A stretch of DNA of 64,000 nt from Alphaproteobacteria bacterium (GCA_015062435.1 SUUR01000001.1:27503-91502); one strand, 5' to 3'. Shown: positions 5,431 through 53,665, counted from the first letter of the stretch. A program made the numbers and translations. Notes: generated by a model from the sequence alone, not told the origin.

Positions 5431-5552
5431 TCATTATAATGTTTTTATTAAACAAGAGCAACGGTATTTTTTAGACAACTGTTTTTTTATAAATTGTATT
5501 CTCCAAAAAAACATTTATAATAAATTTGTGTGTTGTATTTATTGAGGTTGAA

Positions 5553-6392: not shown

Positions 6393-6398
6393 GGATAT

Positions 6399-6758: not shown

Positions 6759-6769
6759 AAGGATGAAAA

Positions 6770-7528: not shown

Positions 7529-7641
7529 TCCGATTTACATGGTTTTGGAAAAATTATTGTTGACTTGTAGAGCTCTTAGAGTTTATAAAGCATTACATTT
7601 AAAATTTGTTTTTAACTTTATTTTTGAAATGGAAAAGAAAA

Positions 7642-7902
7642 ATGGCCAACCATAAATCGGCAAAAAGCAGAATCGTTCGTAACAATAAAAGAAGCATCAT
7701 TAACGGTGCTCGTAGAAGCAGAGTTCGTACTTTTGTGAAAAAAGTTGAGGCTGCTATTTTGAGCGGTAATAAGGAACAAGCTGCAGAAGCTTTTAAAGTT
7801 GCAGAATCTGAATTGATGCGTGCTGTTCGTAAAGGCGTATACAAAATGAATACAGCTGCTCGCACAACATCTCGCTTATCTAAAAAGATTAAAGCTCTGT
7901 AA
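7642..7902 (+). CDS. rpsT: 30S ribosomal protein S20
   Basis: [17 protein letters not shown]... canonical S20 N-terminus; the upstream in-frame extension in the ORF track lacks an RBS. Confidence 0.85.
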
Positions 7903-7926
7903 TTTTATTTTTTTAAGAAACCACTT

Positions 7927-7975
7927 AAAACCCAATCAGGCCAATATTTTGGCTTGTTTGGGTTTGTTTTTATTT
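7927..7975 (+). terminator. rho-independent terminator downstream of rpsT
   Basis: Hairpin AAAACCCAATCAGGCCAATATTTTGGCTTGTTTGGGTTT followed by GTTTTTATTT. Confidence 0.6.
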
Positions 7976-8391
7976 ATGCTAAAAATATCGAATCTAAGCG
8001 ACTCTGCAAGGAATCTATGTCAAGGAATTTAATTGCAATGTTCGGATAATGTTCTGTTGTTTTTATGTTGTAAAATAAAAATAATGTGATTAACATTCAA
8101 ATCACTTTTTAAGAGTTTGTATAGTTTTTTTCGTTTAGAAAAAACTCTACAAATAAAGAAAAGAGAATCTGTCGGTTCAGATAGATTGCAAAACAAAAAA
8201 ATTATTCCGCCTCATCTGAGTAATGGGGATTGTTCATAAAAATGGGGCGGAATTCCCTAAAGTGGCAGAATCCACTCTGAAAGAAAGTTGATTACAATTT
8301 TGCTTCAGAGCCAAGAATGGTTAACAGCTAAAAACAAATATTTTAACGAATGTTTTAGCTGATGGTTGTGTTTATCTTATTTTCTGCAAAT

Positions 8392-8765
8392 AGGATAACA
8401 AATCTAAAATGTACGATTACATTATTTGTGTAAGCACGTTTATGTATGAGTGTTTTGAAAGAGATTTGTTTATCTATTACAGGATAAAGGAAACAAATCA
8501 AAAAAGTACAATTACGTTATTTGTGTAAACAGGTTTATGTATGAGTAGTTTGAAAGAGATTTGTTTTCTTATTAAAGGGATAGAGACAACAAACAAAAAT
8601 ATGATTACGCTATTGCGCAAGCATGTTTCTGTATAAGTATTTTGCGAATGATTGTCTTTATTCATGCTCACGATAAAGCAACATATCAAAAGAGTACAAA
8701 TACGTGGCATCAGATGATTTTCGTAAAAGTATTTTAAGTTTTGCAAACAAAGGAATCGATTGGGG
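8392..8765. repeat. four tandem ~90-95-bp degenerate direct repeats immediately upstream of dnaA
   Basis: Units start at 8392, 8481, 8576 and 8671. Copies 1 and 2 are about 90% identical (shared core ...attacgttatttgtgtaaacaggtttatgtatgagtagtttgaaagagatttgtt); copies 3 and 4 are progressively diverged. Each unit begins AGGATAA/AGGGATA/CGATAAAG. Confidence 0.7.
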
Positions 8766-8796: not shown

Positions 8797-10236
8797 ATGG
8801 CTGAAGAAGCAATATTAACAGATACATCTGTTCAGGACCAATGGGGACAAATCTGCAATCAATTAAAAGCAGAAGTCGGTGATACAGCTTTTGAAAGTTG
8901 GTTAAAACCTTTAAGTGTTGGTTCTTTTTCTGATGGAGTTATGAATATTTGTGTGCCAACACGCTTTATGAGAAACTGGGTGATCACTCATTACAGCGAT
9001 AGAATCCACAAAATTTGGGAAAAGAAAAATCCTGCCATTAAAAACATTAATTTTATAGTACAAGCAATTCAAGAAGAAAGTCGCAGTTTATATAATCCTA
9101 CTTGCCGCTCTCTTCTGAAAAAAATAACATCTACTCCTGCTCCGCAGAATATTTATCAGTCAGGCTCAGCAAATATTTTTGCAAACAACAACGAAGGAAC
9201 ATTAAATGACAGTCTGTCTGTTCCTTTAAACCCTCAATATACTTTTGATAATTTTGTTGTTGGTAAAACAAATGAATTTGCTTATGCTGCCGCTCGTAAA
9301 GTTGCAGAATCAAGAAATGTATCTTTTAATCCATTATTCTTGTATTCGGGTGTAGGATTAGGAAAAACTCACTTAATGCACGCTATTGCATGGCATATTA
9401 AACAACAAGATCCAACAAGAAATATTGTTTATTTATCTGCTGAAAAATTTATGTATAAATTTGTTAGAGCTTTACGCTACAAAGATACAACAGCTTTTAA
9501 AGAACAGTTCCGTTCTGTTGATGTCTTGATGGTTGACGATGTTCAGTTCATGGGGGGAAAAGACACCACTCAAGAAGAATTCTTTTATACTTTCAATTCT
9601 CTTATTGAGGAAGGACGGCAAATAATCATATCGGCAGATAAATCTCCTGCTGACTTAGAAGGAATCGAATCTCGCTTAAAATCTCGCTTGGGTTGCGGAT
9701 TAGTTGCTGATATCCACCCGACAGACTTTGATTTGAGAATGGGAATATTAAACAACAAAGCTCAACAACTTGGCGTAGAACTACCTACAAAAGTTGCTGA
9801 ATTTCTGGCCCAAAAAATCACCTCTAATATCAGAGAATTGGAAGGAGCTTTAAGAAGAGTTATAGCTCATTCTCAATTACTTTCAGATAAAGAAATAACT
9901 CTGGATATGACTCAAGATGTCTTAAAAGATATGTTGCGCTCTTATGATAAACGTACAACAATTGATGAAATTCAGAAAAAAGTAGCCGAACATTTCAATA
10001 TCTCAGTAAAAGAAATGCAATCTTCAAGAAGAGCTCGCACAGTTGCTCGCCCTCGTCAGATAGCTATGTATTTGGCAAAACAACTTACTTCTCGTTCTTT
10101 ACCGGAAATCGGTCGCAAGTTTGATCGTGATCATACTACCGTTATGCACGCAGTCAGAAAAGTAGAAGAACTGATTATAGAAGATGCATCTTTAGCTGAA
10201 AGCATTGATTGTTTGCGTCGTGCATTAGATGCCTAA
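8797..10236 (+). CDS. dnaA: chromosomal replication initiator protein DnaA
   Basis: 479 aa; Walker A GVGLGKTHL, AAA+ region, C-terminal DNA-binding helix (HTTVMHAVRKV); GGGGAG RBS. Confidence 0.95.
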   Translation: MAEEAILTDTSVQDQWGQICNQLKAEVGDTAFESWLKPLSVGSFSDGVMNICVPTRFMRNWVITHYSDRIHKIWEKKNPAIKNINFIVQAIQEESRSLYNPTCRSLLKKITSTPAPQNIYQSGSANIFANNNEGTLNDSLSVPLNPQYTFDNFVVGKTNEFAYAAARKVAESRNVSFNPLFLYSGVGLGKTHLMHAIAWHIKQQDPTRNIVYLSAEKFMYKFVRALRYKDTTAFKEQFRSVDVLMVDDVQFMGGKDTTQEEFFYTFNSLIEEGRQIIISADKSPADLEGIESRLKSRLGCGLVADIHPTDFDLRMGILNNKAQQLGVELPTKVAEFLAQKITSNIRELEGALRRVIAHSQLLSDKEITLDMTQDVLKDMLRSYDKRTTIDEIQKKVAEHFNISVKEMQSSRRARTVARPRQIAMYLAKQLTSRSLPEIGRKFDRDHTTVMHAVRKVEELIIEDASLAESIDCLRRALDA

Positions 10237-10257
10237 ATATAAACTAACCAATCATTT

Positions 10258-10288
10258 CAAGAGCTGCTTTTGCAGCTCTTTTTTTTGC
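10258..10288 (+). terminator. rho-independent terminator after dnaA
   Basis: AAGAGCTGC-TTTT-GCAGCTCTT hairpin followed by a T8 run. Confidence 0.65.
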
Positions 10289-10383
10289 AAAAAGTTGTTG
10301 AATACTTATCCTTTTATCTTCTGATTTTTGATGTTTGTGCTATGATTAGAGCCAATATTAAATAACTTTACGGATCCGAAAAA

Positions 10384-11502
10384 ATGAAATTTGTAATTGA
10401 AAGAGCTCATCTATTAAAAACACTCAGCCACGTGCAGAGTATCGTTGAAAAAAGAAACACAATTCCTGTGCTTTCAAATGTTAGAATCGAAGCATTGGAA
10501 GATGGCATAAGCTTTAAAGCTACCGATATGGATACAGAAATAACCGAAATTGCAGATGCCAAGACTGTTGAAACCGGCGCAACTACTGCTCCTGCGCATA
10601 TGTTGTATGATATTGTTCGTAAGCTATCAGACGGTTCTCAAGTTGAATTGACTTTTCCTGATGAAAAAGGACAATTGACTATTGCATCAGGAAGATCAAA
10701 GTTCTCATTATCAACTATCGGTGTTGAAGATTTCCCAGTAATATCCGGTGATAAATTACCGACAAGTTTTGTTATGGCAAAAGATGATCTTAAAGATGTA
10801 ATTGACAGAACACAATTTGCCGTTTCAACAGAAGAAACAAGATATTATCTTAATGGTTTGTATGTACATGCTAAAAAGGAAGGAAGCTCTAGCGTATTAA
10901 GAGTTGTTGCTACTGACGGACACAGATTGGCTTGTGTTGAAACTCCGCTACCACAAGGTGCGGAAGAACTTAAAGGCGTTATTATTCCTCGTAAAACAGT
11001 CTCTGAAATTCGCAAACTTTTAGATGATAATTCCGTAGAAAATGTTACAGTAGAAATCTCAGAAAACAAAGTGCGTTTTACTTTATCTGATATCACCTTA
11101 ACTTCTAAGCTGATTGACGGAACATATCCTGATTATGAAAGAGTGATTCCTACCGACAACGATAAAACGCTTGAATTAAACGTAAAAGCACTTGCTTCTG
11201 CCGTTGATCGTGTTTCTGTTGTTGCAGAAAGAACACGTGCAATCAAAATGATTACTCATAAAGATAAGGTTACTATAATAACATCCAGTCCTGATTTGGG
11301 TAATGCTTCTGAAGATTTAGATGCAAAGTATGAAAATGAATCTTTGGAAATAGGCTATAATTTTCGTTATTTGTTAGATATTTTAGCTGAGATTAAAGGT
11401 GAAACGGTAAGAATATCTTTTGCTGATGGCTCATCTCCTTCTGTTATTCATGATACAAGTGATGCAAGCGCAATTTATGTATTGATGCCTATGCGAGTAT
11501 AA
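10384..11502 (+). CDS. dnaN: DNA polymerase III beta sliding clamp
   Basis: 372 aa; MKFVIERAHLLKTLSHVQ N-terminus; position after dnaA. Confidence 0.9.
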   Translation: MKFVIERAHLLKTLSHVQSIVEKRNTIPVLSNVRIEALEDGISFKATDMDTEITEIADAKTVETGATTAPAHMLYDIVRKLSDGSQVELTFPDEKGQLTIASGRSKFSLSTIGVEDFPVISGDKLPTSFVMAKDDLKDVIDRTQFAVSTEETRYYLNGLYVHAKKEGSSSVLRVVATDGHRLACVETPLPQGAEELKGVIIPRKTVSEIRKLLDDNSVENVTVEISENKVRFTLSDITLTSKLIDGTYPDYERVIPTDNDKTLELNVKALASAVDRVSVVAERTRAIKMITHKDKVTIITSSPDLGNASEDLDAKYENESLEIGYNFRYLLDILAEIKGETVRISFADGSSPSVIHDTSDASAIYVLMPMRV

Positions 11503-14513: not shown

Positions 14514-15449
14514 TTAAAAACCGCTATTACGACTTTTAAATATTCCGTTTTCAAAACCTTGTATTTGAGGATTAGAATCCGCAATATCCAATCTTTTCAG
14601 AGCCAATGCCGCATATTCTTTTTCTTGTTCTATTCCAAGATATTTGCGTCCTAATTTTTTGGCGACAACAGCAGTAGTTCCGGATCCTAAAAACGGGTCA
14701 AAAACAAAATCGCCTTCATTACTTGATGCTAAAATCAGCTTGGCAATCAATTTTTCCGGTTTCTGAGTCGGGTGATTGGTGTTTTCCGGCATAGACCAAA
14801 AAGGAATGGAGATATCAGTCCAAATATTTGACGGTGATGTGAGTCTAAATTTGTTTCCGGAACTCTCTTGCCAATCTTTGGGATTGCCTTTTTTATCTCG
14901 GTACGGAGCCAACACCGGACGTTGTATTTTTACAGAATCAAGATTAAAAGTATAATTTTTACTTTTGGTAAAAAACCAAATATCTTCTAAACAATTTTTC
15001 CAATTGTTGTTTGCACCTCTTCCTTTCTCACGCTCCCATGAAATGCGATTTTGAAGCAAAAAATATTTGCCTGCAATTTCCGGTATAAATAAAGATGTTT
15101 TCCAATCAGAGCATATATATATTGAAGCATTATCTTTTAATAATCTAACCGTTTTTGATAACCAAGAATCTAACCACGCTAAGTATGATTCCGCTTCCAT
15201 TGCTTTAAAGATGTTTTTTCCAAAGTTTTTCGTAAGATTATAAGGAGGATCAACGATCATCAAATCAACAAAAGAAGACGGAAGATATTCCATTGCTTTA
15301 AAACAATCTTGGCATATTACCTGATTTTGAATATCGGATAAATTTGTTGCTGAATTTAATTTGATTGCCTGTGATATGTATAAAGCCGCCTCTATTCGGG
15401 ACAGCTCTATTGTTTTGTTGCGTGGGGCTTTGTTTTTTTTAGCAACCAA
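14514..15449 (-). CDS. orphan beta-class DNA N6-adenine (or N4-cytosine) methyltransferase, CcrM/M.HinfI-like
   Basis: Catalytic DPPY motif (MIVDPPYNL) precedes the AdoMet motif FDPFLGSGTT, the beta-class order; 311 aa; no restriction enzyme gene adjacent; start lies 2 bp from the HPr stop. Confidence 0.8.
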   Translation of the reverse strand: MVAKKNKAPRNKTIELSRIEAALYISQAIKLNSATNLSDIQNQVICQDCFKAMEYLPSSFVDLMIVDPPYNLTKNFGKNIFKAMEAESYLAWLDSWLSKTVRLLKDNASIYICSDWKTSLFIPEIAGKYFLLQNRISWEREKGRGANNNWKNCLEDIWFFTKSKNYTFNLDSVKIQRPVLAPYRDKKGNPKDWQESSGNKFRLTSPSNIWTDISIPFWSMPENTNHPTQKPEKLIAKLILASSNEGDFVFDPFLGSGTTAVVAKKLGRKYLGIEQEKEYAALALKRLDIADSNPQIQGFENGIFKSRNSGF

Positions 15450-16627: not shown

Positions 16628-18394
16628 GTGTTAAAAAGTAATCGAAATATGGAAAAAAACGCATCTAAATTTATTTGGCATTATGCAAAAATTTTTAAGT
16701 TTGCCCTTATCGCTATGCTTTTTTTACTGATTATAGGACAAATATGCAGACAATTTGTACCTTTTTATTTAGCAAAAATATATGAAACCGTATCTTCAGC
16801 AAATATTGATGATAATGTATGGAATAATTTAATAAACTTTATTTTGCTTGCGTTTATATTACAATTATCAGGTACGGCTATTCCTAATAGCGGATTTATA
16901 ATAACTGCAAAAATTACTCCCCAAATCAGAACCATTGTCATCAGTGATGTTTTTGATTATGTAAACAAACATTCTATTGCTTATTTTTCAGAAGAAATGG
17001 CCGGAAACATATCTAATAAAGTTCAACAATTACAAAGCGGCGTTACGGAACTGTTTCATCATAGTTTAGATAGTGTTTGGAGTATTTGCTATGTCATAAT
17101 CGGGGTCGTTGTATTAAGCTCCGTAAGTATGTGGTTAACACCTGTTTTTATTTTGTGGTCCGTGATAATGATCTCTTTAGGTTTTTTCTTAGGAAAAAAG
17201 CTACACAAACTATCAAAAGATTCCAGTAACAAACAAAGTTTGGCAAACGGAATGATCGTGGATTCAATCGCTAATTATTCCGAAATAAAAAGTTTTTCTA
17301 ATTTTAAATTTGAAAAACTTAACTTGCTTAAGGCCCTGAGAATTTTAAGAAAATCAGAAAGTAAAGAAGAATTGGGTAGGGCTATTATTATCTTTACTCA
17401 ACATACTTCTATCGTTATATCTTTTTTATTGTTTATGATTTATACGGCATGGTTGTTGAAAAACAGTATTTTAACTCCGACAGATTTTATATTTGTAAAC
17501 GGATTGTTTGTAACTATGTCCGGTGTGATTTTTAGCATCACATACGGATACAATCAGTTGTCACGTATTTTGGGAAAAATTAATTCTGCTCTGGAAACTT
17601 TAGCGGTTGAGCCTGAAATAACAGATATGCCTAAGGCTCAAAAACTAAACATCAAAAAAGCAAATATTTGTTTTGAAAATGTTGATTTTTCTTACAAAAA
17701 TAGTCGAAATATTTTCTCAGGACTTAATGTCAAGATTAATGCCGGTGACAAAATCGGATTGGTTGGAGCAAGCGGAGCAGGAAAATCTACCTTCATAAAA
17801 TTATTGGCCAGATACTATGATGTTAAAAAAGGCAAAATATTAATAAACGGAATTGATATTCGGAATATAACTCAAGACTCTTTGCACAAACATATTGCCA
17901 CCATTCCTCAAGATGTGTGCTTGTTTAACCGCTCTTTGGCTGATAATATTCGTTATGGTAAAACAAATGCATCTATGGCAGAAATTATTACTGCCTCCAA
18001 AAAAGCTTCTGCTCATGAATTTATTAAGAATTTAGATGGTAAATATAATGCAAAAGTCGGAGACAGAGGTGTGATTTTGTCCGGTGGTGAAAGGCAAAGA
18101 GTGGCTATTGCCCGTGCCATACTGAAAAATGCACCGATATTAATATTTGATGAAGCAACCTCAGCACTTGATACAGAAAATGAAAAATATATTCAAAAAT
18201 CTTTGGCAAAGCTTATGAAAGGAAAAACGGTTATTGCTGTTGCACATAGATTATCTACTTTATTGGAAATGGATAGAATCTTGGTGTTTGATAATGGTAA
18301 AATTATTGAGGAAGGAACTCATGAGGAGCTTTTACAAAAACAAGGAAAATATGCAAAACTCTTTAAAATGCAAGCCGGAGGATTTTTGAAGTAA
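16628..18394 (+). CDS. ABC exporter, fused permease/ATP-binding protein (MsbA-like)
   Basis: N-terminal six-TM domain; C-terminal nucleotide-binding domain with Walker A GASGAGKST, signature LSGGERQRVAIARA, Walker B ILIFDEATSALD. Confidence 0.8.
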   Translation: MLKSNRNMEKNASKFIWHYAKIFKFALIAMLFLLIIGQICRQFVPFYLAKIYETVSSANIDDNVWNNLINFILLAFILQLSGTAIPNSGFIITAKITPQIRTIVISDVFDYVNKHSIAYFSEEMAGNISNKVQQLQSGVTELFHHSLDSVWSICYVIIGVVVLSSVSMWLTPVFILWSVIMISLGFFLGKKLHKLSKDSSNKQSLANGMIVDSIANYSEIKSFSNFKFEKLNLLKALRILRKSESKEELGRAIIIFTQHTSIVISFLLFMIYTAWLLKNSILTPTDFIFVNGLFVTMSGVIFSITYGYNQLSRILGKINSALETLAVEPEITDMPKAQKLNIKKANICFENVDFSYKNSRNIFSGLNVKINAGDKIGLVGASGAGKSTFIKLLARYYDVKKGKILINGIDIRNITQDSLHKHIATIPQDVCLFNRSLADNIRYGKTNASMAEIITASKKASAHEFIKNLDGKYNAKVGDRGVILSGGERQRVAIARAILKNAPILIFDEATSALDTENEKYIQKSLAKLMKGKTVIAVAHRLSTLLEMDRILVFDNGKIIEEGTHEELLQKQGKYAKLFKMQAGGFLK

Positions 18395-19188
18395 TGGAAG
18401 ATTTGTATGTTTTTGATATTAATGATTTTAATCAGGGATTAAAAGATGAGATAGATATAAATATTGATAATGCTGAATTGTTTGGAGCTACAGAACAAGA
18501 AAAACTTCACATAATAAAAGAAAGCATTAAAAATTATATACTAAAATTCTTGTTTCAAATAAAAAACATTTTGGATAAGCTTTCTTGTATAAGCTTAGCT
18601 AATATTGTATTGATGCTAATAAATATGGGAATTGATTTTGATGATGAAGAATTTCAATATTGGCGAAATATTTTTGAGTTACAGTATTTAAACAGGTTAA
18701 ATAATATCGAATTTTATCAACAAAGTGATTTAGAAAAATTGTTAAATGCGCTTCAAAGACTTAGCCCCGATTTTGCTATACCAAAATTAAGCTCTGATTT
18801 AGATTATAAGGAACGACAAACACCAAAATTTGAAAGTTTTATAAAAAAGCACTCTAAAACAGACTTAAAAAAAGAACAAATACCTAATGATAAAGACATT
18901 CAACTAATAAATATGCTTAGAGGAATAGTGAAAATTAATAATAAAAAACAAAAACTATTTGAAAGCAAAATACAAAAACAAATTATTGAAGAGCTAAATA
19001 AGCAAAACCAAAAGCTATTTGAAAAAAAACGAATTCATCTAAAAAATCAAGAAATTATAAATCGCGAATTTTCAAACAAAAGGAATCGAAAAGTGGCGAT
19101 GAAGGTTATTGAAGATAAAAATAAACCTATTGATGAGAAAGCAATAAAAAAGCTTAAACTAAAGATGATTTCTAAAAAAGGAAGATAA
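18394..19188 (+). CDS. hypothetical charged protein with internal K/Q-rich repeats
   Basis: 264 aa; start overlaps the ABC exporter stop (TAATG); internal repeats NKKQKLFESKIQKQ / NKQNQKLFEKKRIH; no TM helix. Confidence 0.4.
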   Translation: MEDLYVFDINDFNQGLKDEIDINIDNAELFGATEQEKLHIIKESIKNYILKFLFQIKNILDKLSCISLANIVLMLINMGIDFDDEEFQYWRNIFELQYLNRLNNIEFYQQSDLEKLLNALQRLSPDFAIPKLSSDLDYKERQTPKFESFIKKHSKTDLKKEQIPNDKDIQLINMLRGIVKINNKKQKLFESKIQKQIIEELNKQNQKLFEKKRIHLKNQEIINREFSNKRNRKVAMKVIEDKNKPIDEKAIKKLKLKMISKKGR

Positions 19189-19190
19189 CC

Positions 19191-19808
19191 TCAAACTTTT
19201 AATCGGTATCCGCCTTCTACGGTCAATATTAACTGATCATCGGGACTATCATGTTCAACCTTTTGGCGCAATCTATAAATATGTGTTTCTATTGTATGAG
19301 TGCTTACATCAGGAGAATACTCCCAAACTTCTTGCAATAAGTCATTTTTACTCACCAGTCTGTCTTGATTTTTATAAAGATACTTGATGATGGCAACTTC
19401 TTTTTCCGTCAGTTTCGTTACTTCTTGGTTCCGCAAATTTATAATTTCTTTTGCTATGGGGCGAACTTCGTATCGATTAAAATAAATATATCCTTCGGAT
19501 TTGTTTTCAAAACGATTTATACAGGAGTGCAACTCATCTAAAAAATATGATAGTTTTGCCGGTTTTGAGATAATATGTATGTTTTGACGGATATCGGAAA
19601 TGTTTTCTGTTGCTGATGAAAAAAGAAAAATCGGCAAATTTAGTTCTTTCTGTGCAAACAACGAAATGTCTTCATCAATAATTACAATATCTGCTTTTTC
19701 TGCAGTATTATCTTCAATAATATTATAATCGGCAGAGTGATAAATTATTTGATTGCTTAAATCATTTTTAAACACATCGTCTTGTGATAAAAATAAAATA
19801 TTCGGCAT
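19191..19808 (-). CDS. OmpR-family winged-helix transcriptional regulator with atypical receiver-like N-terminal domain
   Basis: C-terminal trans_reg_C-like segment (VWEYSPDVSTHTIETHIYRLRQKV...LTVEGGYRL); N-terminal ~110 aa receiver-like but degenerate; no kinase gene nearby. Confidence 0.5.
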   Translation of the reverse strand: MPNILFLSQDDVFKNDLSNQIIYHSADYNIIEDNTAEKADIVIIDEDISLFAQKELNLPIFLFSSATENISDIRQNIHIISKPAKLSYFLDELHSCINRFENKSEGYIYFNRYEVRPIAKEIINLRNQEVTKLTEKEVAIIKYLYKNQDRLVSKNDLLQEVWEYSPDVSTHTIETHIYRLRQKVEHDSPDDQLILTVEGGYRLKV

Positions 19809-19818
19809 TGCTATCCCC

Positions 19819-20943
19819 CTAAAAATTGAAACCTACACCTGTGACAAAAGCCCAGCCTTGTTTATTGTTTGAAGAATATTTATCTTCTTCAAAATCAACA
19901 TGTGCAACTGCTAAATATATATCTGCATTTTGATTTACCTGATACCGGTTAGATAAGCTCCAAATCTTATCTTGATGGTTGGAGTTGTTTGATTTTGATT
20001 CAAAATAACTTAATGTTGTTTGTAATGGACCTATCTTGTAACCTATACCAATATCCCAAGCCTGACCTTCTCTATAACCATCAAAAAACTCCGGCATTTC
20101 GTAATCTTGCGAATATGTTCTTTTTCCATTAACATCTGTTTTACGCCAACCTCCACCAATATTCCAATTGCCATAACTTAATCGGACAGATGCCGAATAT
20201 TCATTATCATCATCATGAAACTTTGCCGTTGCCAATGATGCATCTATATACAATCCTGATATTTCTTGAGAAGTATAGATGGCTCCGATGTAACCGGATT
20301 TATTTTTATATGGTGCATGAGAATTTATCAAACCTCGACGATTATATGATTTGGGTGTATAAGAAAAGCCAATGCCTGTACCATAAAATTCCGGCGAAAC
20401 GTAACTGATTTTCGGAGCAACTCCATCTGTGTTAATATAAGTAGCATTTAGAGTTACAAATTTGGTTTGTTTGGTATTGCGTTGCCAATTGGGATTGGAG
20501 ATAAAATCAACTATATCTGAAGTATTTGTAAATACTCCTGTTGTCGGTACTCCATCAGAAAATTGATATGCTACATTAAACATTTGACCAACCATCAATT
20601 GTCCATATGGTGTGTTTAATATAGAATAAATCTCCTCTCCCCATTTGCCTTGATTGTAGTTTTGGAGTTCTTTATCCGCTCCAACCATAAAATCAATATG
20701 AAAAGAGATTCCATAGTCCTCGTTAAAATCATAAAATAATGTACTGTTTAATTCACCGTCACCAACAATATGATTATCTTTTTGTTTACGAGAATCCGTA
20801 TAGCCATAAAAACCTCGTACTTCACCGGAAATTTCAGTATTCCACTCTCCAGCTTTGACAAGTGACGGAACTAATAAAAACAATAAGATTAAAGATCGTA
20901 AATTCATTAAAACCTCTGATTTCGATTGTTTTATCCTAAACAA
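19819..20943 (-). CDS. outer-membrane beta-barrel porin
   Basis: 374 aa; signal peptide; alternating amphipathic strands; C-terminal aromatic residue (…GVGFNF). Confidence 0.55.
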   Translation of the reverse strand: MFRIKQSKSEVLMNLRSLILLFLLVPSLVKAGEWNTEISGEVRGFYGYTDSRKQKDNHIVGDGELNSTLFYDFNEDYGISFHIDFMVGADKELQNYNQGKWGEEIYSILNTPYGQLMVGQMFNVAYQFSDGVPTTGVFTNTSDIVDFISNPNWQRNTKQTKFVTLNATYINTDGVAPKISYVSPEFYGTGIGFSYTPKSYNRRGLINSHAPYKNKSGYIGAIYTSQEISGLYIDASLATAKFHDDDNEYSASVRLSYGNWNIGGGWRKTDVNGKRTYSQDYEMPEFFDGYREGQAWDIGIGYKIGPLQTTLSYFESKSNNSNHQDKIWSLSNRYQVNQNADIYLAVAHVDFEEDKYSSNNKQGWAFVTGVGFNF

Positions 20944-21029: not shown

Positions 21030-23507
<2,478 letters not shown>

Positions 23508-23660
23508 TTATATGAAATATACAACTAATTAAAAAAATTACCAAGCAAAAATCGCTATTTTTCCAAGCTTTTGTGCATAAAACACTACATTTTTAGAAGT
23601 AGACAACATTCTTAAAATATTATAAAATTAACTTAAGAATAAACCTAAAAGGAAGATAGC

Positions 23661-25943
23661 ATGAAATACAGTATAATGATTGATGTTGCTAAAGATGTTG
23701 ATACAGAATATGCAGTTTGTGCAAATAACGCATGCAACGAATTTTTAAAATTATTTCCCGAGCATAAAAACAAATTTGATATCTATATGCGCTATGGTAA
23801 CACTGTTTATAATTGCAAAACAGGTGAAACAAAACCATATAATCCGACAATTTCCGAACAACAATTACAAAACATAGCAGATAAAAATCAGTATATTAAA
23901 CAAGCTGACGGCAGGTATCTTATACCTAAGGAATCAATGGAATGGTATGAACAGTTCGGAAAACGCTCTGACGAACAACTTAATTATGGTAAAATCAGCA
24001 AACCTCAAGTTGATTGGATCAACACCAATATTAACCATATGGACAGCAGATATTTTCATTTAGGTGTTACCAATAAAAAATTGTATAATGAAGAAGGATT
24101 ATTCGGATACGGAATAAGCTGCCCTCAAGTAGGAACTTTTGTTTCTACCAGCGGTTTTAGCCAAGAACAATTCAAAAGGCTTATTTGGCATGAGTTCGGA
24201 CACGTTTTTGGCGCAGTTCACAGTGAACGTGATGACATTACCAACACTCAATATGGAGAACACTGCGCTCACAACGGTTGTGTTATGAGAGATGTTGTTT
24301 ATGCCGGCCTTATGGAAGCAAATAAGCCTAAATTATTCTGTGATGATTGTATAGAATCTATGAATAGATACCTACAAACACTTACAAAACCTCGCACCAA
24401 TGAAAACTCTTTAGAAATAGAAGATAACACCCAAGAACTTCCAGATAACAGAGAAAAAGACGACAACTTCAAGCTTAAATGGAGAGAATTTGCAAAAGAA
24501 TTAGCCATTAAAACAAAAACCTCTTTAAGTGAAGATAAAAAAGATACAAACTTTAATGCTAAACTGGTTTCTCAAGATGGAGCTTATATCAGAATCACGG
24601 CATCTTCAGCTAACAACGTTGCACTAATGGCCCGAGATAGCAAAGGAAACAAAAAAGTTCCTGATATGGAAGTATTTACGGCTTTGGCTCAAAAAGCTAG
24701 CAAATCCGGACAAGCAATTAATTTTGGCGATATAAAATCAGCGGAATTTAAAGCCAGATTACTTATCGCTTGCATAGAAAACAATCCTCCAATTACAACT
24801 CGTAATACTCCTAAAATTGATGATGATTTTCTTGCAAGTATAGATACTGCCAGCGCTAATAAATTAAAAACACTACAAAGTAAGAATACCGAAAAGCAGG
24901 AAAATAAAAAAACATTTTTTGAAAAAACTAAAGATGCCAGAAAATATCTTCTGGAGGTTAAAGCGAAAAAGAACATTATAACTCCAATAGAAAAAGCCGA
25001 ACTAACCTATATTTTAACGGAAGAAAAACGTAAACAGGAAAAAGAAGATGCTATAAAAAGAACCGGTAATGAAATAGATCCTCGTACAGCAGAACACATT
25101 GTAAACTCAGGTTTGCCGGTAGAAAATTATGTTTATTCTTCAAAATCAAATAGAACTTGGCGCGGTTGGAAGATGCATTTAGACGTTGTTCCAAATAGAA
25201 ATGACCCCACTACAAAAGCTATATCGGAGTTTTTAGAAGAACTTGATATTGACCATAAAATTGCAAAGGGCGGTGAGAACGGCAAAGGTATGACTATCTA
25301 CGTGGGTGGACATGCCGATGCATCTCGGTTAGCTAATGAATTAAACTCACGTTTTGGGAAAGATATTACTGAACCACCTATTTATACAGATCAAAAAGGC
25401 GAAGAAATTGATTTTAACAAAACAGTTACCGGAAGATTTTATTTGCAAGATATTTTTCAAATTCAGTATCCTAAATCCGCTATAAAAGGCATCTGTCCGA
25501 CTGATTATGGTTCTCTTTGTGACAACAATATGTCAAACCTTGTAACCGCTATCGCAATCCAAGAGAATTTAATCAGCAACAACTATGTTCAAGGTAAAAA
25601 TTTAATAAATCAAGATTTTTATGATTGGTACATTGTGAATAATTTAGAAACATATTGTGCTCATAAATTTTATCAAAAGCATCTTGGTGATTTTTATTGC
25701 GGAAAAGATGCTGATAAATTTGAAGAAATTGTTTTTGAAAACAAACTTCCGCCAATCGATTCTGCTGAAAGAAAAAAATGGAACAAAATCGCAACCCAAT
25801 ATAACAACATACTAGAGCAAGAAAACTCTGAAGCTATAAAAAAGATGAAGATATTAAAAAACACCTATACTCCCATAGACTTTTCAAAAGCAAAACCTAT
25901 ACATAGCTTAAATCCAAACAGTATAGGCAAACAGTTATCTTAA
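23661..25943 (+). CDS. orphan 760-aa protein with N-terminal archaemetzincin (M54)-like metzincin zinc-protease signature and a ~500-aa uncharacterised C-terminal extension
   Basis: Residues 177-230 (nt 24189-24350): HEFGHVFGAVH = HExxHxxGxxH, then C-AHNG-C-V-M, exactly 17 residues, CDDC = Cx4CxM-x17-CxxC; no signal peptide; only plus-strand gene between gyrB and polA. Confidence 0.6.
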   Translation: MKYSIMIDVAKDVDTEYAVCANNACNEFLKLFPEHKNKFDIYMRYGNTVYNCKTGETKPYNPTISEQQLQNIADKNQYIKQADGRYLIPKESMEWYEQFGKRSDEQLNYGKISKPQVDWINTNINHMDSRYFHLGVTNKKLYNEEGLFGYGISCPQVGTFVSTSGFSQEQFKRLIWHEFGHVFGAVHSERDDITNTQYGEHCAHNGCVMRDVVYAGLMEANKPKLFCDDCIESMNRYLQTLTKPRTNENSLEIEDNTQELPDNREKDDNFKLKWREFAKELAIKTKTSLSEDKKDTNFNAKLVSQDGAYIRITASSANNVALMARDSKGNKKVPDMEVFTALAQKASKSGQAINFGDIKSAEFKARLLIACIENNPPITTRNTPKIDDDFLASIDTASANKLKTLQSKNTEKQENKKTFFEKTKDARKYLLEVKAKKNIITPIEKAELTYILTEEKRKQEKEDAIKRTGNEIDPRTAEHIVNSGLPVENYVYSSKSNRTWRGWKMHLDVVPNRNDPTTKAISEFLEELDIDHKIAKGGENGKGMTIYVGGHADASRLANELNSRFGKDITEPPIYTDQKGEEIDFNKTVTGRFYLQDIFQIQYPKSAIKGICPTDYGSLCDNNMSNLVTAIAIQENLISNNYVQGKNLINQDFYDWYIVNNLETYCAHKFYQKHLGDFYCGKDADKFEEIVFENKLPPIDSAERKKWNKIATQYNNILEQENSEAIKKMKILKNTYTPIDFSKAKPIHSLNPNSIGKQLS

Positions 25944-25948: not shown

Positions 25949-28687
25949 TCAATGCGCTTCTGTCCAGTTTTGACCGACCCCGACTTCTGCGATAAACGGA
26001 ACATCCAGTTGCACTATACTTTCCATTGTTTGCTTGATAATTTGTGATGCTTGCTCAACTTCAGAATCCGGAGCCTCAAAAACCAACTCATCATGCACTT
26101 GCAAAAGCATTTTGGTTTTTAAACCAGCATTTTTGAGATATTCAACAACTCTATTCATGGCTAATTTGATAATATCGGCAGCCCCACCTTGTATCGGTGC
26201 ATTGATAGCTGCTCGTTCAGCATTGGCAACAATTTTTTTATTAGAATCGTTGATTCCGAAAACTGAACATTTACGTCCAAACGGGGTTTGCACATATTCA
26301 TGCTTATGAGCAAAATCGATAGTATCTTCCATATATTTTTTTATTTCCGGCATTTGTTTAAAATATGCATCAATATAAGCCTTAGCATCAGCGACTTCTA
26401 CTCCGATATTTTTAGCCAAGCCATAAGCTGAAATACCATAAACAATACCAAAATTAATAGCTTTTGCCTGACGACGTAAATTTGCATCAACCTTATCCGG
26501 AGCGACACCAAATACATGTGATGCTGTGGCAGTATGAACATCTATACCATCGGAAAATGCCTTTTTCAGAGCCTTTACATTTGCAACATTGGCCAATAAA
26601 CGTAACTCCACCTGAGAATAATCAGACGAAATTAACTTATGTCCGGATTTTGCAATAAAGCAAGAACGAATTTTTTTGCCTTCTTCAGATCGAATTGGAA
26701 TGTTTTGCAAATTAGGATTAACAGAACTTAAGCGACCTGTATTGGCAACTGTTTGCAAATATGTGGTGTGAATACGTGAATTTTTATCAATTAACGAGAA
26801 CAAAGAATCGGTATAAGTGGACTTTAACTTACTTAACTCTCTCCAATCTAATATTTTTTGAGCTAAAACATTGCCTTCAGCAGCTAAATCTTCCAACACA
26901 TCAGCGCCTGTTGCCCATGCGCCTGTTGCTGTTTTTTTACCTTTTATTCCTTGTTTGGTAAACAATATCTCTCCAACTTGCTTTGGAGATCCTAAATTAA
27001 AATCTTCTCCGGCAATGTTAAAAGCCTCCTGTTCTAATAACTTTAACTTATCCTCCAAATAACGGCTAAGTTTTTGTAACATTATAGCATCAATCATTAC
27101 CCCTGATTTTTCCATGTCATAAAGAGTGGCTAATAACGGACGGTCGTAATTTTCATAAATATTCGCTTTACGCTCGCTTACCAAGCGTGACCTCAAAAGA
27201 TGGTGTATGCGTAAACAATAGTCAACCCTTTTGCAACAAAACTCTTTAACTGTATTAATTTCTGCATCTGCATACGAAATTTTACTTTTACCACTGCCGA
27301 CAATACTATCTTCTTCCGGTAAATCTTTTTCTAAAAAAAGCGGTATCAGATCTTTAAGAGTATGTCCATGCTCAGAACTATCAAGAACATATGACAAAAC
27401 AGCAACATCATCATAAGGGAAAAACTCTAAATCCATACCATTTTCAGATAAAAAATGAAAAATGTTTTTCAATCCGCAGCCGACTTTTAAGATTGAACGA
27501 CTACGGAAAATAGGACGTAAAGCCTCCATAACATCTTTTATATCTACGGTTGATTTTTTAGGCGCTGATGAAAATAAGTCAAAATCGTCATTGTTTTTTA
27601 CAGCTATGGGAATATAGCAAGCTCTGCCAAAATCAGAACATAAAGATAATCCACAAACATTATCAAAAAACGGATTATTTCCATCACTTACACAATCAAT
27701 AGAAACAACTCCTGAAATATCCTTCAACCACTCTTTTAATGAGGCTTGCGAATCAATCAGTTCGTACTGTTCTTTTACACTTTTAAATACACCGCTCACT
27801 CCTTTATCCGCAATATCAGAACACCGTTCACATATCCACTTTTCCACACGTGATTTTAGTGTTTTAAAATCATAATCTGATATAAATTTATATACCCGCT
27901 CTTTATCGGGAGCTTTGCATATATATTCCTCTAAAGAGTGTTCAACCGGCACATCTTTTTTCAATGTTACGAGTTGGAGAGATATTCTGGCATTCTCAGC
28001 ATTCTCAATCAACATGCGACGTCTTTTTTCCTGTTTGATTTCAGTTGCATGTATCAACACATTTTCCAAAGAACCATATTCATTAATCAATTGAGATGCA
28101 GTTTTCGGACCAATACCAGGTACTCCGGGTACATTATCAATGCTATCTCCGGACAAAGCCTGAACATCAACAACTTTATCAGGATATACTCCAAACTTTT
28201 CTTTTACGTCTTCAGGCGAAAAAAACTTATCTTTCATAGGATCATAAAGCTCTACATGCGGACGAATCAACTGCATAAGATCTTTATCGGCAGAAACTAC
28301 AACAACATCCATTCCCTTAGCAAGAGCTTTTTCAGTATAGGTCGCTATCAAATCATCTGCTTCAAATCCTTCCATTTCCAAATAATTGAGATTTAATGCC
28401 TCTACCGCCTCTCTGATTATAGGGAACTGAGGTATCAAATCTTCCGGAATTTCTTTTCTGGTTCCTTTGTAATCCGGAAAAATATCATTACGATAATTTT
28501 TTCTTTTGGCATCAAACAAAACCAAGCAATAATCACATTTGATTTTGGTAGTGAGCTTCAAAAACATATTGGTAAAACCATACACCGCATTTACAGGCGT
28601 GTTGTCTGGAGCTGTTAGCGGAGGAAGTCCGTAAAACGCTCTAAAAATGTAACCTGACCCATCTATCAGACATATTTTTTTTGACAT
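25949..28687 (-). CDS. polA: DNA polymerase I
   Basis: 912 aa; 5'-3' exonuclease N-terminus, polymerase motifs (DYSQIELR, QVHDELV). Confidence 0.95.
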   Translation of the reverse strand: MSKKICLIDGSGYIFRAFYGLPPLTAPDNTPVNAVYGFTNMFLKLTTKIKCDYCLVLFDAKRKNYRNDIFPDYKGTRKEIPEDLIPQFPIIREAVEALNLNYLEMEGFEADDLIATYTEKALAKGMDVVVVSADKDLMQLIRPHVELYDPMKDKFFSPEDVKEKFGVYPDKVVDVQALSGDSIDNVPGVPGIGPKTASQLINEYGSLENVLIHATEIKQEKRRRMLIENAENARISLQLVTLKKDVPVEHSLEEYICKAPDKERVYKFISDYDFKTLKSRVEKWICERCSDIADKGVSGVFKSVKEQYELIDSQASLKEWLKDISGVVSIDCVSDGNNPFFDNVCGLSLCSDFGRACYIPIAVKNNDDFDLFSSAPKKSTVDIKDVMEALRPIFRSRSILKVGCGLKNIFHFLSENGMDLEFFPYDDVAVLSYVLDSSEHGHTLKDLIPLFLEKDLPEEDSIVGSGKSKISYADAEINTVKEFCCKRVDYCLRIHHLLRSRLVSERKANIYENYDRPLLATLYDMEKSGVMIDAIMLQKLSRYLEDKLKLLEQEAFNIAGEDFNLGSPKQVGEILFTKQGIKGKKTATGAWATGADVLEDLAAEGNVLAQKILDWRELSKLKSTYTDSLFSLIDKNSRIHTTYLQTVANTGRLSSVNPNLQNIPIRSEEGKKIRSCFIAKSGHKLISSDYSQVELRLLANVANVKALKKAFSDGIDVHTATASHVFGVAPDKVDANLRRQAKAINFGIVYGISAYGLAKNIGVEVADAKAYIDAYFKQMPEIKKYMEDTIDFAHKHEYVQTPFGRKCSVFGINDSNKKIVANAERAAINAPIQGGAADIIKLAMNRVVEYLKNAGLKTKMLLQVHDELVFEAPDSEVEQASQIIKQTMESIVQLDVPFIAEVGVGQNWTEAH

Positions 28688-33477: not shown

Positions 33478-34761
33478 ATGCTAAAAAAATCATCTATTTT
33501 TTCCGTTTTGTTTTGTTTGGGAATTGTTGTTTTTTCATCAAACATAGCTGAAGCAAAGAAAAATCAAAAAAATGAAACTACACCAAACACTTATGAGTTA
33601 TTGAATCTGTTTGGCGAAGTTATGGAAAGAGCTAAGTCATCTTATGTCGAAGATGTTGAAGACAAAAAATTGATAGAAGCTGCTATCAATGGTATGTTAG
33701 TATCTTTAGATCCTCACTCAAGTTACCTAGATGAGCAAAGTTTTAAATACATGAACGAGCAAACTCAAGGAAAATTCGGAGGCTTGGGAATTGAGGTAAC
33801 AATGGAACAAGGATTGGTAAAAATCGTTTCTCCAATTGATGATACTCCTGCATCTGAGGCTGGGCTTAAACCGGGTGATTACATAACTAATATTGACGGT
33901 GAAACAGTTATCGGAATGAGCCTTAATGATGCTGTCGATAAAATGAGAGGTAAAGTCGGATCTAAAATTAAATTGACAATCAGAAGAATAAACGAAAAGC
34001 CTTTTGATGTTACACTAAAAAGAGAAGAAATAAAGATACAATCTGTTAAAAGTGAAATAAAAAATGATGATGTTATATATATCAGAATTTCATCTTTTAG
34101 CGAAGAAGTTGATAAAAATATTGAAAAATCGATAAAAAAACTATCTAAAAATAAAAAAATTAAAGGTGTGGTCTTAGATGTAAGAAACAATCCCGGCGGA
34201 TTGCTTGATCAGGCGGTGGCTGTTTCTGATCTATTTTTAAATCAAGGAGAAATTGTTTCTACAAGATCTAGAAATCCTGAAGATACCGTGAGATACACAG
34301 CTAAAGACGGTGACATTATCAATGGTATGCCTATTGTGGTGATTATAAATGATGGTTCAGCATCTGCATCAGAAATTGTTGCAGGAGCATTGCAAGATCA
34401 TAAAAGAGCCGTAGTTTTAGGTGAAAAATCTTTTGGAAAAGGATCTGTACAAACAGTTGTCCCCTTAGGAAACGATTCTGCGATGAGGTTAACAACTGCA
34501 AGATATTATACTCCTTCCGGACGCTCAATTCAGGCTAAAGGAATCGAGCCGGATATTGTAGTTCATCCGGCAAAAATAGAAGAATTCAAAAATGAATATA
34601 ATTTCAGTGAAGCGGAATACGCAAATGCGTTAAAAAATGAAAAAGATGATAGTAATCCCAAAAAAACAAAATCATCCGCAGATGATGATTGGCGCAAAGA
34701 TTATCAGCTTTCACGGGCGGTAGATCTGGTAAAAGCTCTTGATATTTATAACAAAAAGTAA
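33478..34761 (+). CDS. ctpA: carboxy-terminal processing protease (S41)
   Basis: PDZ domain plus S41 catalytic region (GSASASEI, GEKSFGKGSVQ). Confidence 0.85.
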   Translation: MLKKSSIFSVLFCLGIVVFSSNIAEAKKNQKNETTPNTYELLNLFGEVMERAKSSYVEDVEDKKLIEAAINGMLVSLDPHSSYLDEQSFKYMNEQTQGKFGGLGIEVTMEQGLVKIVSPIDDTPASEAGLKPGDYITNIDGETVIGMSLNDAVDKMRGKVGSKIKLTIRRINEKPFDVTLKREEIKIQSVKSEIKNDDVIYIRISSFSEEVDKNIEKSIKKLSKNKKIKGVVLDVRNNPGGLLDQAVAVSDLFLNQGEIVSTRSRNPEDTVRYTAKDGDIINGMPIVVIINDGSASASEIVAGALQDHKRAVVLGEKSFGKGSVQTVVPLGNDSAMRLTTARYYTPSGRSIQAKGIEPDIVVHPAKIEEFKNEYNFSEAEYANALKNEKDDSNPKKTKSSADDDWRKDYQLSRAVDLVKALDIYNKK

Positions 34762-35950
34762 GGATATATATGTGATTAAAAAAGTTACATCTTATAAAAT
34801 TCTTATTTCCTCAGTTGTTTTAGCAATTCTGATAATTGCAGTTATCGGATTTTGGTTTGCTGATGAAAAAAGTGCTCCGGTTTATTTAAATAAAATTGAT
34901 AAACTAATGTTTGATACCAATAATAAAGCTCCTAAGTTTGTGCTAACATTGCCGGACGCAGACCAAATGCAATCTCAACAAAATTCTCAGATTTCTACTG
35001 AAGCAGCATTTGAAGCAAAGACAGAAAAACCCGTGGAATCAGTGAAAAAAACAGAGACACTCGAAGACATTATTATGCAAATACCTAATCTGGTATTACT
35101 TTTGCCAAAACCTGCCACTCAACAATTAAAACATATCACTCTGGCAGATGATCTTACGGAATCTTTTGAAAAAAAATTACTACCGAAAGTATCCGAAGAT
35201 GGGCGCAAACCTTGGAACGAATATGGTAAAAGCGTAAACATAAAGCCAAATTTCAAAAAAGTGGCTATTGTTATAAAAGGTTTGGGGCTTGATGCCGTTT
35301 CTTTGGATAAAATCGTTAAAGGACTGGATTCTGAAATATCTGTTTCACTTTCTCCGTATGCATCTGATGCAGGTACAAAACTGATATCTGCCAGACAATA
35401 TGGCCATGAAACATACATAGACTTGCTGCTTTCCTCCAAAAACTTTCTTAAATCAGATAACGGCCCTATGTCTATGAGTATAACAATCAGTATTGAAGAA
35501 GCTCTAAACAGATTGAGAACAAGCTTGGATGCCGGAGCCCCTATCGGTGGTGTTGTGGTGAATGACGGAATCGCTGATGATGATAATAAAGAACTCTTAT
35601 TTAGCATCTTAAAAGAATTAAAAAATAGAGGATTATTATTGATTGATGCCACTCATGGAGACGGATTGAATAAAATAAAAGTTGAAGGGTTGCCCAGAAG
35701 AAAAGCAGATATCGTTATTGATAATGATTTTAACAGAGATGTTATTAGAAAACAACTACAACAAGCAGAAGATATCGCTTTCAAAAAAGGGCATGTATTG
35801 GTTGTGATAGACCCTAAACCGGTGGCTATTATTGAAGTTTATAACTGGATAAAAGAGTTTTCTCCTCAAGTTGAATATGAAGACGCAAAAAATATGGAAC
35901 TAAAAAAACCTTTTGCCGTTGTACCTGTTTCTAATTTGGTTATAGATTAA
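34739..35950 (+). CDS. divergent polysaccharide deacetylase family protein (YibQ-like)
   Basis: N-terminal TM helix; C-terminal region resembling the YibQ/divergent polysaccharide deacetylase fold. Start uncertain: a GTG at 34772 with AAGGA upstream would remove the overlap with ctpA. Confidence 0.5.
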   Translation: MIFITKSKDIYVIKKVTSYKILISSVVLAILIIAVIGFWFADEKSAPVYLNKIDKLMFDTNNKAPKFVLTLPDADQMQSQQNSQISTEAAFEAKTEKPVESVKKTETLEDIIMQIPNLVLLLPKPATQQLKHITLADDLTESFEKKLLPKVSEDGRKPWNEYGKSVNIKPNFKKVAIVIKGLGLDAVSLDKIVKGLDSEISVSLSPYASDAGTKLISARQYGHETYIDLLLSSKNFLKSDNGPMSMSITISIEEALNRLRTSLDAGAPIGGVVVNDGIADDDNKELLFSILKELKNRGLLLIDATHGDGLNKIKVEGLPRRKADIVIDNDFNRDVIRKQLQQAEDIAFKKGHVLVVIDPKPVAIIEVYNWIKEFSPQVEYEDAKNMELKKPFAVVPVSNLVID

Positions 35951-42571: not shown

Positions 42572-42619
42572 ACCTAAATTGTGCTTGAAAATTATAGGAA
42601 ATCTGTTATGTATACTAAT

Positions 42620-42706
42620 GGAGAGCGATGGGTTATTCCCTCGCCAATCCGGTCAGGTTCGGAAGAAAGCAGCCGTAACGAGTAAGAATAAGGTCATCGT
42701 TTCTCC
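42620..42706 (+). ncRNA. ffs: signal recognition particle RNA (4.5S RNA, ffs)
   Basis: Domain IV core GGTCAGGTTCGGAAGAAAGCAGCC matches the bacterial consensus (E. coli GGUCAGGUCCGGAAGGAAGCAGCC); 5' GGAGAGCGATG pairs with 3' CATCGTTTCTCC; the position upstream of dnaX-ybaB-recR is a conserved arrangement. Confidence 0.65.
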
Positions 42707-42732
42707 TCCAAAATTTCTATTGCGAATGTAAT

Positions 42733-53589: not shown

Positions 53590-53665
<76 letters not shown>

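Follow-up and report, generated by a model that had tools for sequence, protein, structure and literature searches.

A protein of gut Alphaproteobacteria joining an archaemetzincin-like domain to a phospho-Ser/Thr lyase-like domain

Phospho-lyases of the OspF type are familiar from a few pathogen effectors of type III secretion systems (T3SS) and from lanthipeptide synthetases, while for the archaemetzincins (peptidase family M54) we know of no established physiological substrate. It has been described that archaemetzincins carry the fingerprint HEXXHXXGXXHCX4CXMX17CXXC, the four Cys of which hold a structural zinc beneath the active site (PMC3427221). Among the lyases, residues K65, H67 and K94 of ThurKC correspond to K104, H106 and K136 of SpvC and are essential, as determined by mutagenesis (PMC10604976, PMC9486802). 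Effectors of type IV secretion systems (T4SS) with an XVIPCD or BID domain have a globular module together with a tail that is disordered and either Gln-rich or positive, and BID is also present in relaxases (PMC8740702). The present analysis concerns a gene for a protein of 760 amino acids (aa), the query, on a 64-kb stretch of alphaproteobacterial DNA (SUUR01000001.1:27503-91502, hereafter the window), in which an archaemetzincin-like domain and a phospho-lyase-like domain occur within one polypeptide.

The identities of the domains of this protein are well supported and can be held with high confidence, and each of the two enzymatic domains is a divergent form within a known superfamily. 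No description of the protease-lyase fusion, of the M module lying between its two parts or of its family's GGR-type C-terminal tail was found in the libraries and literature searched, and the distribution of the family in gut commensal Alphaproteobacteria and relaxases appears to be unreported. The open reading frame (ORF) is 100% identical to NCBI record P0001 ('MAG: hypothetical protein E7012_00275 [Alphaproteobacteria bacterium]'), which derives from a gut metagenome-assembled genome (MAG). Alignment of relatives divides the protein into four modules (N, 1-245; M, 262-400; lyase-like core, 480-600; helical tail domain, 601-745), and its features are as follows.

23661..25943, + strand: complete ORF, 760 aa, ATG start, TAA stop at 25941-25943
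23661..24395, + strand: N domain, archaemetzincin-like zinc metallopeptidase, aa 1-245
24189..24350, + strand: zinc-site motif, H177ExxH181, (H187), 14-aa beta-hairpin insertion, H201-C202-x4-C207-x-M209-x17-C227-xx-C230
24444..24860, + strand: M module, alpha/beta domain of ~140 aa, aa 262-400, alpha-beta4-alpha-beta-alpha, predicted local distance difference test score above 90
24861..25097, + strand: Lys/Glu-rich helical linker, aa 401-479, of differing length among homologues; its helices begin the C-terminal structure model
25098..25460, + strand: phospho-Ser/Thr lyase-like domain, aa 480-600, with predicted catalytic K504, H506 and K533 and conserved D577 and R592
25170-25172, 25176-25178 and 25257-25259, + strand: codons of the predicted catalytic K504, H506 and K533, respectively
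25461..25895, + strand: helical C-terminal domain, aa 601-745, the usual partner of the lyase domain, with a conserved Y-x-P-I-D-F end
25896..25943, + strand: C-terminal tail, aa 746-760 (KAKPIHSLNPNSIGKQLS), and stop codon; a degenerate form of the family's positive Q/R/P-rich tail

The extents of the ORF (23661-25943) and of its zinc motif (nt 24189-24350) are those given in the initial annotation of this DNA. The motif of the query reads H177-E-F-G-H181-V-F-G-A-V-H187, followed by C202-AHNG-C207-V-M209, 17 residues and C227-D-D-C230. Its Cys4 spacing, C-x4-C-x-M-x17-C-xx-C, had been given initially as that of archaemetzincins and does agree with the published fingerprint (PMC3427221). Conservation was counted in 75 non-identical homologous N domains and shows that the motif did not arise by chance. 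The HExxH residues (H177 75/75, E178 74/75, H181 75/75), the His-Cys pair (H201 74/75, C202 73/75) and the remaining Cys (C207 75/75, C227 74/75, C230 75/75) are nearly invariant; loss of the HExxH or Cys residues in orthologues, named initially as a finding that would speak against the assignment, was not seen, with the ligands being 97-100% kept. The Met-turn residue M209 is kept in 64 of the 75 (85%), G184 and H187 are poorly kept (14/75, 19%, and 50/75, 67%, respectively), and the x17 spacer is longer by several residues in some relatives. In the structure model HEXXH sits in helix 168-182, while the inserted beta-hairpin has its strands at 193-196 and 199-202. As H201-C202 is conserved and G184 and H187 are not, the insertion of ~14 residues is most likely located after HExxH and before the HC pair, rather than in the interval from the third His to the first Cys, where it had been placed. 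We read the family motif as HExxH-x19-HC-x4-C-x-M-x17+-C-xx-C, in which H201 is most likely the third conserved His, immediately preceding the first Cys like the His of the archaemetzincin 'HC'; H187 of the query may be an alternative zinc ligand or a relic. H177, H181 and most likely H201 would bind the catalytic zinc with E178 as the general base, and C202, C207, C227 and C230 would form a structural Cys4 zinc site under the active site.

The archaemetzincin-like nature of the N domain, as first suggested from its motif, is supported by profile comparisons, although the matches are weak. The NCBIfam archaemetzincin model (NF033823, archmetzin) matches the query with E = 2.9e-4 (20.8 bits, the cut-off being 145; covering 62-168 of its 170 positions) and is matched by 13 of the 16 relatives obtained in a word-indexed search. 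A profile of the N family searched against the PDB returned archaemetzincins as all of its top four structures, at marginal E values of 0.02-0.07. A match to Reprolysin_2 (E = 2.8e-4) points to metzincins generally; a single-sequence PDB search gave marginal metzincin HExxH matches only, and a PADLOC single-sequence search of the query gave no match. Checks against M54 itself failed at the curated thresholds, the score for NF033823 falling short as stated and PF07998 giving no match for the query at E ≤ 10 and one match (E = 0.83) among the 16 relatives. The contiguous HEXXHXXGXXHC fingerprint is also absent from the query, its Cys coming 14 residues past H187, after H201. The fold of the N domain is nearer to that of archaemetzincins than to any other metzincin family, and the domain is a relative of M54 by fold and motif logic that lies outside M54 by curated thresholds and contiguous fingerprint.

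The extension of ~500 aa behind the N domain, in which the initial annotation recognised no motif, contains a phospho-Ser/Thr lyase domain (480-600) as well as the widespread M module (262-400). Residues 480-600 have the OspF/SpvC/LanKC-type phospho-Ser/Thr lyase fold. A profile made from 29 diverse lyase-like domains matched the class III lanthipeptide synthetase LanKC in the PDB (accession no. 9wop, E = 3.2e-4), with the alignment (GWKIHIS...FK) matching G-W-K-x-H plus a Lys 27 residues on; the spacing of 27 residues in K504-M-H506...K533 is the same as that of K65/H67/K94 of ThurKC. Conservation over the 29 domains reaches at least 90% for W503, K504, H506, K533, Y547, R592 and F593. D577 and R592 do not vary within the close family; by order and spacing only, they may be the equivalents of D201 and R213 of SpvC, in which R148, D201, R213 and R220 make up the phosphate-binding pocket and the catalytic Asp. 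Weak matches of the query to Pfam RamC_N (E = 0.008; 16.1 bits, the gathering threshold being 27) and to NCBIfam LanL/LanKC (LanL, E = 0.12) fall in one region, 491-579. The link of the query to RamC_N is transitive, as the query is below threshold while its relative P0147 is above it (31.0 bits; P0141 and P0135 score 24.2 and 22.3, respectively). A profile search for proteins homologous to the lyase domain returned five proteins.

Judged by its conserved residues, this domain is probably an active phospho-Ser/Thr beta-eliminase. If it works like SpvC and ThurKC, abstraction of the alpha-proton would fall to K533, with K504 and H506 stabilising the enolate and protonating the phosphate as it leaves, so that the target phospho-Ser/Thr would irreversibly become a dehydro-amino acid. 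The helical domain behind it (601-745) matched no known family. Matches to Tad2/AcrIIA7 over a GKGM stretch, obtained in a PDB profile search with the whole C-terminal region, were at chance level and were rejected. HMM (hidden Markov model) scans identified no kinase or LanC-type domain in the query or the 16 relatives. The protein is thus not a lanthipeptide synthetase, as it is without kinase and cyclase and has no precursor peptide gene nearby, and a lanthipeptide gene cluster was rejected on these same grounds.

The M module is the constant part of a family whose enzymatic heads are swapped. It is kept in 16/16 close homologues and was found in most of 162 mapped representatives; in dozens of otherwise unrelated 'dark' proteins it ends roughly 20-150 residues before the C-terminus. 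No Pfam match to any family and no PDB sequence match was obtained for M, and a profile search for its homologues returned one protein. Its near-invariant residues are hydrophobic, Pro or Cys only, and since no polar residue is conserved it is probably non-catalytic; M probably represents a new adaptor domain. Among the 162 mapped proteins, M follows unrelated N-terminal regions in 55, with N-M in 25, N-M-lyase-tail in 16, M-lyase-tail in nine and lyase-tail-M in three, and the lyase core also occurs alone in proteins of up to 6105 aa.

The C-termini of 99 family proteins were compared with those of 297 neighbouring (background) ORFs. An ending of G-x?-R in the last few residues was present in 41/99 family proteins (2/297 in the background) and GGR specifically in 23/99 (0/297), with the last 20 residues having a net charge of +2.8 in the family and +0.1 in the background. 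Gln, Arg, Pro, Lys and Asn are over-represented in the family tails, whatever the last domain, and the tail of a human-gut variant reads ...RPNRPPHRPGSGNRRYTPGRQSGGRS.

The protein had been called an orphan, which it is not. An HMM scan of 1.84 billion cluster representatives gave 426 clusters (50% identity) at E ≤ 1e-3, and a GTDB scan with one genome per species gave 23 loci, all in alphaproteobacterial MAGs from the gut, the hosts being ruminants, rabbit, chicken (Candidatus Scatocola), mouse and human. About 20 of these 23 species have a member in the same slot, divergent from gyrB and mostly convergent with polA; this arrangement recurs on metagenome contigs, with one family copy per locus. 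The gyrB-slot proteins are 403-1165 aa in length, N is absent or replaced in some of them, and the closest relative (gyrB 96% identical) consists of N-M only, without the lyase module. At each locus the family protein is the fastest-evolving gene: in the gyrB slot its identity is 27-75% (gyrB 81-96%, polA 55-82%, porin 40-56%), between fmt and hslVU it is 35% (fmt 88%, hslU 94%), and between dnaJ and dnaK it is 46% (dnaK 96%). No transposase, integrase, candidate immunity gene or secretion gene was found alongside family genes at the loci examined.

M proteins fill at least three further chromosomal slots, antisense among highly conserved housekeeping genes. They lie between fmt and hslVU (L038 3231-5369; L042 5049-7097), between dnaJ and dnaK (L041 8732-10441, with a 1372-aa ORF at 4577-8728 of the same locus; L040 9-881) and, in L029 (9068-10600), adjoining aspS and phage terminase/portal-like genes. 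In some species the metallopeptidase of the gyrB-slot protein gives way to a phosphatase domain of Ppx/GppA, which lies upstream of M (Pfam E 1e-15 to 1e-17); proteins of this Ppx/GppA-M type are L009 2986-6462, L024 7005-8558 and P0028. In P0012, P0015 (aa ~415-732) and locus L010 (8001-10199) a different C-terminal domain of ~300 aa replaces the lyase and tail. By eye this domain resembled a cysteine protease (His/Cys, GHNIAL...NRMDC), but no Pfam or PDB match was obtained and no claim is made. Inserts of 400-700 aa separating N from M were seen in L023 7944-11432, L011 6024-9542, P0023 and P0047; one or two lyase-like repeats in them (HRFILNVNP...YKF...VVIY) were noticed by eye only and are not significant (iE 0.05-4). 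Some relatives have a flagellin gene nearby. The L038 locus, which carries an M protein, has a flagellin-like ORF (9594-10436, + strand), called by eye from its N-terminal sequence; motility, and not an obligately intracellular life, is thereby suggested for at least part of this group of gut Alphaproteobacteria.

Relaxases are substrates of T4SS, and the lyase-like domain was found fused to TrwC/AAA_30 relaxase-helicases (P0122, P0135 and P0147), one of which also has Toprim_3, and inside a protein of 6105 aa (P0152). A 406-aa 'hypothetical protein' on plasmid pSR-1 of Skermanella rosea (L026 11293-12513; NZ_CP086112.1 325146-326366) was identified as having a MOBP-type relaxase-like N-terminus (HxDxxxPHxH) and a lyase-like domain, and its gene is directly upstream of a traG/trb T4SS operon. 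The catalytic Lys, Lys and Arg are replaced in this copy (GWQLHL, YQ, GAF), indicating that the lyase-like fold can persist without catalysis. Searches gave no match in 50,697 phage records and one match in 72,556 plasmid records.

Our preferred reading, which is held tentatively, is that the 760-aa protein is a modular effector exported independently of Sec, whose protease and phospho-lyase together disable phosphorylation-dependent signalling in a target cell. This is suggested by the conserved positive tail, the rapid divergence, the shuffling of domains and the presence of the lyase-like domain in relaxases. Export would proceed without a Sec signal through M and the positive C-terminal tail, possibly by type IV secretion, and the effector, possibly a type IV secretion substrate, would act in another cell, eukaryotic or bacterial. 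There the protease would cleave target proteins, while the lyase would permanently erase phospho-sites. The initial annotation had also stated that the protein is without a signal peptide, and this stands, as the model confidently places residues 2-9 in a beta-strand that belongs to the catalytic domain. No small ORF able to encode an immunity protein adjoins the gene among the ORFs of the window, which was counted in favour of an effector. It is a more doubtful proposal that M and the Gln/Arg-rich GGR tail define an undescribed export signal and a fast-evolving effector repertoire of commensal gut Alphaproteobacteria, including human-gut species. If true, such a repertoire would bring OspF-type phospho-lyases, archaemetzincin-type proteases, Ppx/GppA phosphatases and many heads of unassigned kind to host, protist or bacterial cells, and irreversible 'eliminylation' of phosphoproteins would be used by gut commensals and conjugative elements, beyond T3SS effectors and lanthipeptide synthetases.

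Several observations weigh against export of an active effector. No T4SS gene was detected in the window or in 40 related loci (tblastn with TraG, TrbB, TrbE, TrbL and TrbF of Skermanella), and no gene of a type I secretion system was seen in the same DNA. Type I secretion through the MsbA-like ABC exporter encoded at 16628-18394 was considered and rejected: the exporter is below every curated cut-off, including those of type I secretion families, and is thus no evidence for such a system. M has no detectable similarity to XVIPCD or BID in Pfam and PDB searches, and the tail of the query (...NPNSIGKQLS) is without GGR and has a charge of about +2 only. Every curated HMM threshold was missed by the query, and all bacteria in which the family was detected are uncultured ones that metagenomes have made known. 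It has been described that archaeal archaemetzincins show no proteolysis in vitro and that the bacterial homologue CarG is no protease (PMC3427221). Strict conservation of the gyrB slot suggests vertical inheritance and possibly a cellular role.

The last of these points leads to the main rival of the effector reading, in which the protein would be a cytoplasmic, lineage-specific regulatory enzyme whose protease and lyase act on the cell's own proteins, for example by undoing or erasing Ser/Thr phosphorylation or by processing a partner, with M as a docking module for an internal structure. The same slot in about 20/23 species, the single copy per locus and the native GC content together suggest the vertical inheritance of a core gene, and the lack of a signal peptide and of nearby secretion genes is in keeping with a protein that stays in the cytoplasm. 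M is also fused to Ppx/GppA, which in bacteria serves the metabolism of polyphosphate and (p)ppGpp, and CarG, a bacterial homologue of M54, acts as a regulator inside the cell (PMC3427221). Divergence far above that of neighbouring genes and whole-domain gain or loss between close relatives would, however, be unusual for a core regulator, a positive GGR-type C-terminus across different last domains has no obvious cytoplasmic role, and the lyase-like domain recurs in relaxases that are translocated by T4SS; a cytoplasmic regulator is considered rather unlikely. The same relaxases could instead point to descent from the 'polyvalent' proteins of conjugative elements; the protein would then be delivered with DNA by a conjugative T4SS to neutralise the defences of recipient bacteria, such as kinase-based abortive infection, and would not be directed at a eukaryotic host. 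The fusions to TrwC, AAA_30 and Toprim_3 in relaxase-helicase-primase proteins, the MOBP-type relaxase of pSR-1 beside traG and trb, the occurrence within P0152 and a weak structural match (E = 0.015) to a phage 'large polyvalent protein associated domain' are all consistent with this origin. It is nevertheless improbable, given that the query and its relatives at other loci are among housekeeping genes with no integrase, relaxase or transfer genes within about 8-10 kb, that phage and plasmid records gave a single match and that the GC content is native.

Loss of catalysis also has to be considered, with one or both catalytic domains inactive and the protein acting by binding only, as a pseudo-enzyme or scaffold in the manner of CarG and archaeal AmzA. 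The active sites of archaeal archaemetzincins are occluded and the proteins show no activity in vitro, CarG carries HQxxH and works as a transcription factor subunit (PMC3427221), and the relaxase-fused lyase-like copy of Skermanella has lost its Lys, Lys and Arg. In the query and the close family, by contrast, the predicted catalytic residues (E178, K504, H506, K533 and R592) are intact and nearly invariant; such conservation despite rapid divergence argues for selection on catalysis and makes a pseudo-enzyme quite improbable. A maturation enzyme for lanthipeptide-like peptides that are made by the ribosome and modified after translation (RiPPs), in which the lyase would dehydrate phospho-Ser/Thr of a precursor and the metalloprotease would remove the leader peptide, is very improbable, as domains of the kinase or cyclase kind are absent from the protein itself, and its annotated neighbours and the related loci include neither a kinase or cyclase nor a precursor peptide or dedicated exporter.

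The surroundings of the gene were also described, and the following features flank it or precede its start codon.

21030..23474, - strand: gyrB
23600..23628, + strand: promoter-like TAGACA-17-TAAAAT, 10/12 matches, top-scoring in the scanned region
23650..23655, + strand: Shine-Dalgarno-like AGGAAG, 5 nt before the ATG, read from the sequence
25949..28687, - strand: polA, stop codon at 25949-25951

The convergent stops of the ORF and polA are separated by 5 bp, and the 186-bp divergent intergenic region between gyrB and the ORF is AT-rich (22% GC, against 33.9% in the gene), both in agreement with the layout described initially. The number of promoter-like sites in the scanned region is not above that of shuffled sequence. 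As the GC content of the gene (33.9%) agrees with the window average (34.3%), the gene is not a recent import; with the conserved synteny, this rules out recent horizontal transfer. Its annotated neighbours are a porin, gyrB, polA, PBP1A, iPGM, EnvC-like and CtpA.

Elsewhere in the window, a 205-aa protein beside the porin gene (19191-19808, - strand) has a response-regulator winged-helix (OmpR/PhoB-type) match at residues ~80-203 and no receiver-domain match, and the same pairing with Porin_4 occurs in L001. The 374-aa ORF at 19819-20943 (- strand), which has a signal-peptide-like N-terminus, is the positional counterpart of the Porin_4 gene by gyrB in L001; at E ≤ 1e-5 NCBIfam gave no match to it, as is also the case for ORFs 18394-19188 (+ strand, 264 aa) and 34739-35950 (+ strand, 403 aa). 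An adenine-specific DNA methyltransferase related to the CcrM type is encoded at 14514-15449 (- strand; E = 3e-50, below equivalog cut-offs). The only RNA genes detected in the window were those of a bacterial small signal recognition particle RNA (42617-42712, + strand, 67 bits) and tRNA-Ala(GGC) (53590-53665, - strand).

When compared with known systems, the N domain shares HExxH, the His-Cys pair and an identical C-x4-C-x-M-x17-C-xx-C spacing with the archaemetzincins (M54; AmzA of Methanopyrus kandleri and Archaeoglobus fulgidus, human AMZ1 and AMZ2, and CarG of Myxococcus), which, like the query, are without signal peptide and without a disulfide-type Cys pattern. It differs from them in the beta-hairpin of ~14 residues between HExxH and His-Cys, in the Gly of HExxHxxG, which is mostly Asn or another residue in the query family, and in ~60-70 additional residues ahead of the core. 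Unlike the solved archaeal AmzA proteins, which are single-domain and of about 160-210 residues, it is fused to M and the lyase. A bacterial archaemetzincin branch fused to an effector-type lyase would offer the archaemetzincins a testable biological context.

The arrangement of the family likewise recalls the X-Tfes of Xanthomonas (XVIPCD) and the Beps of Bartonella (BID), since it too joins variable enzymatic heads, a conserved globular module of ~120-140 aa and a disordered, Gln-rich positive tail; the likeness is one of working and not of homology. As with BID, one module is common to effector-like proteins and relaxases, although here this is the lyase-like domain and not M. M is predicted to be alpha-beta4-alpha-beta-alpha, whereas XVIPCD is alpha-alpha-beta-beta-beta and BID a four-helix bundle, and, in contrast to X-Tfes and Beps, immunity genes do not adjoin the gene, T4SS genes are absent from its vicinity, and M is internal in the query. 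M marks hundreds of 'hypothetical' proteins whose genes are set among housekeeping genes and whose rate of evolution exceeds that of the neighbours many times over, and is thereby a practical handle on the interaction proteins of an uncultured gut lineage.

With the OspF/SpvC/LanKC lyases the query shares the fold, G-W-K-x-H-[LI] with a Lys 27 residues downstream, and a conserved Asp and Arg-Phe further downstream. Its lyase is not followed by a kinase or cyclase domain as in LanKC and LanL, and it has neither the T3SS-type N-terminus of OspF and SpvC nor an identified docking motif for mitogen-activated protein kinases. In contrast to all of these enzymes, it carries its own helical domain behind the lyase, and lyases of its type are found in gut commensal Alphaproteobacteria and conjugative relaxases. 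Catalytically intact lyases in relaxases and in the widespread commensals that inhabit the guts of ruminants, rabbit, chicken, mouse and human would widen the range of irreversible dephosphorylation.

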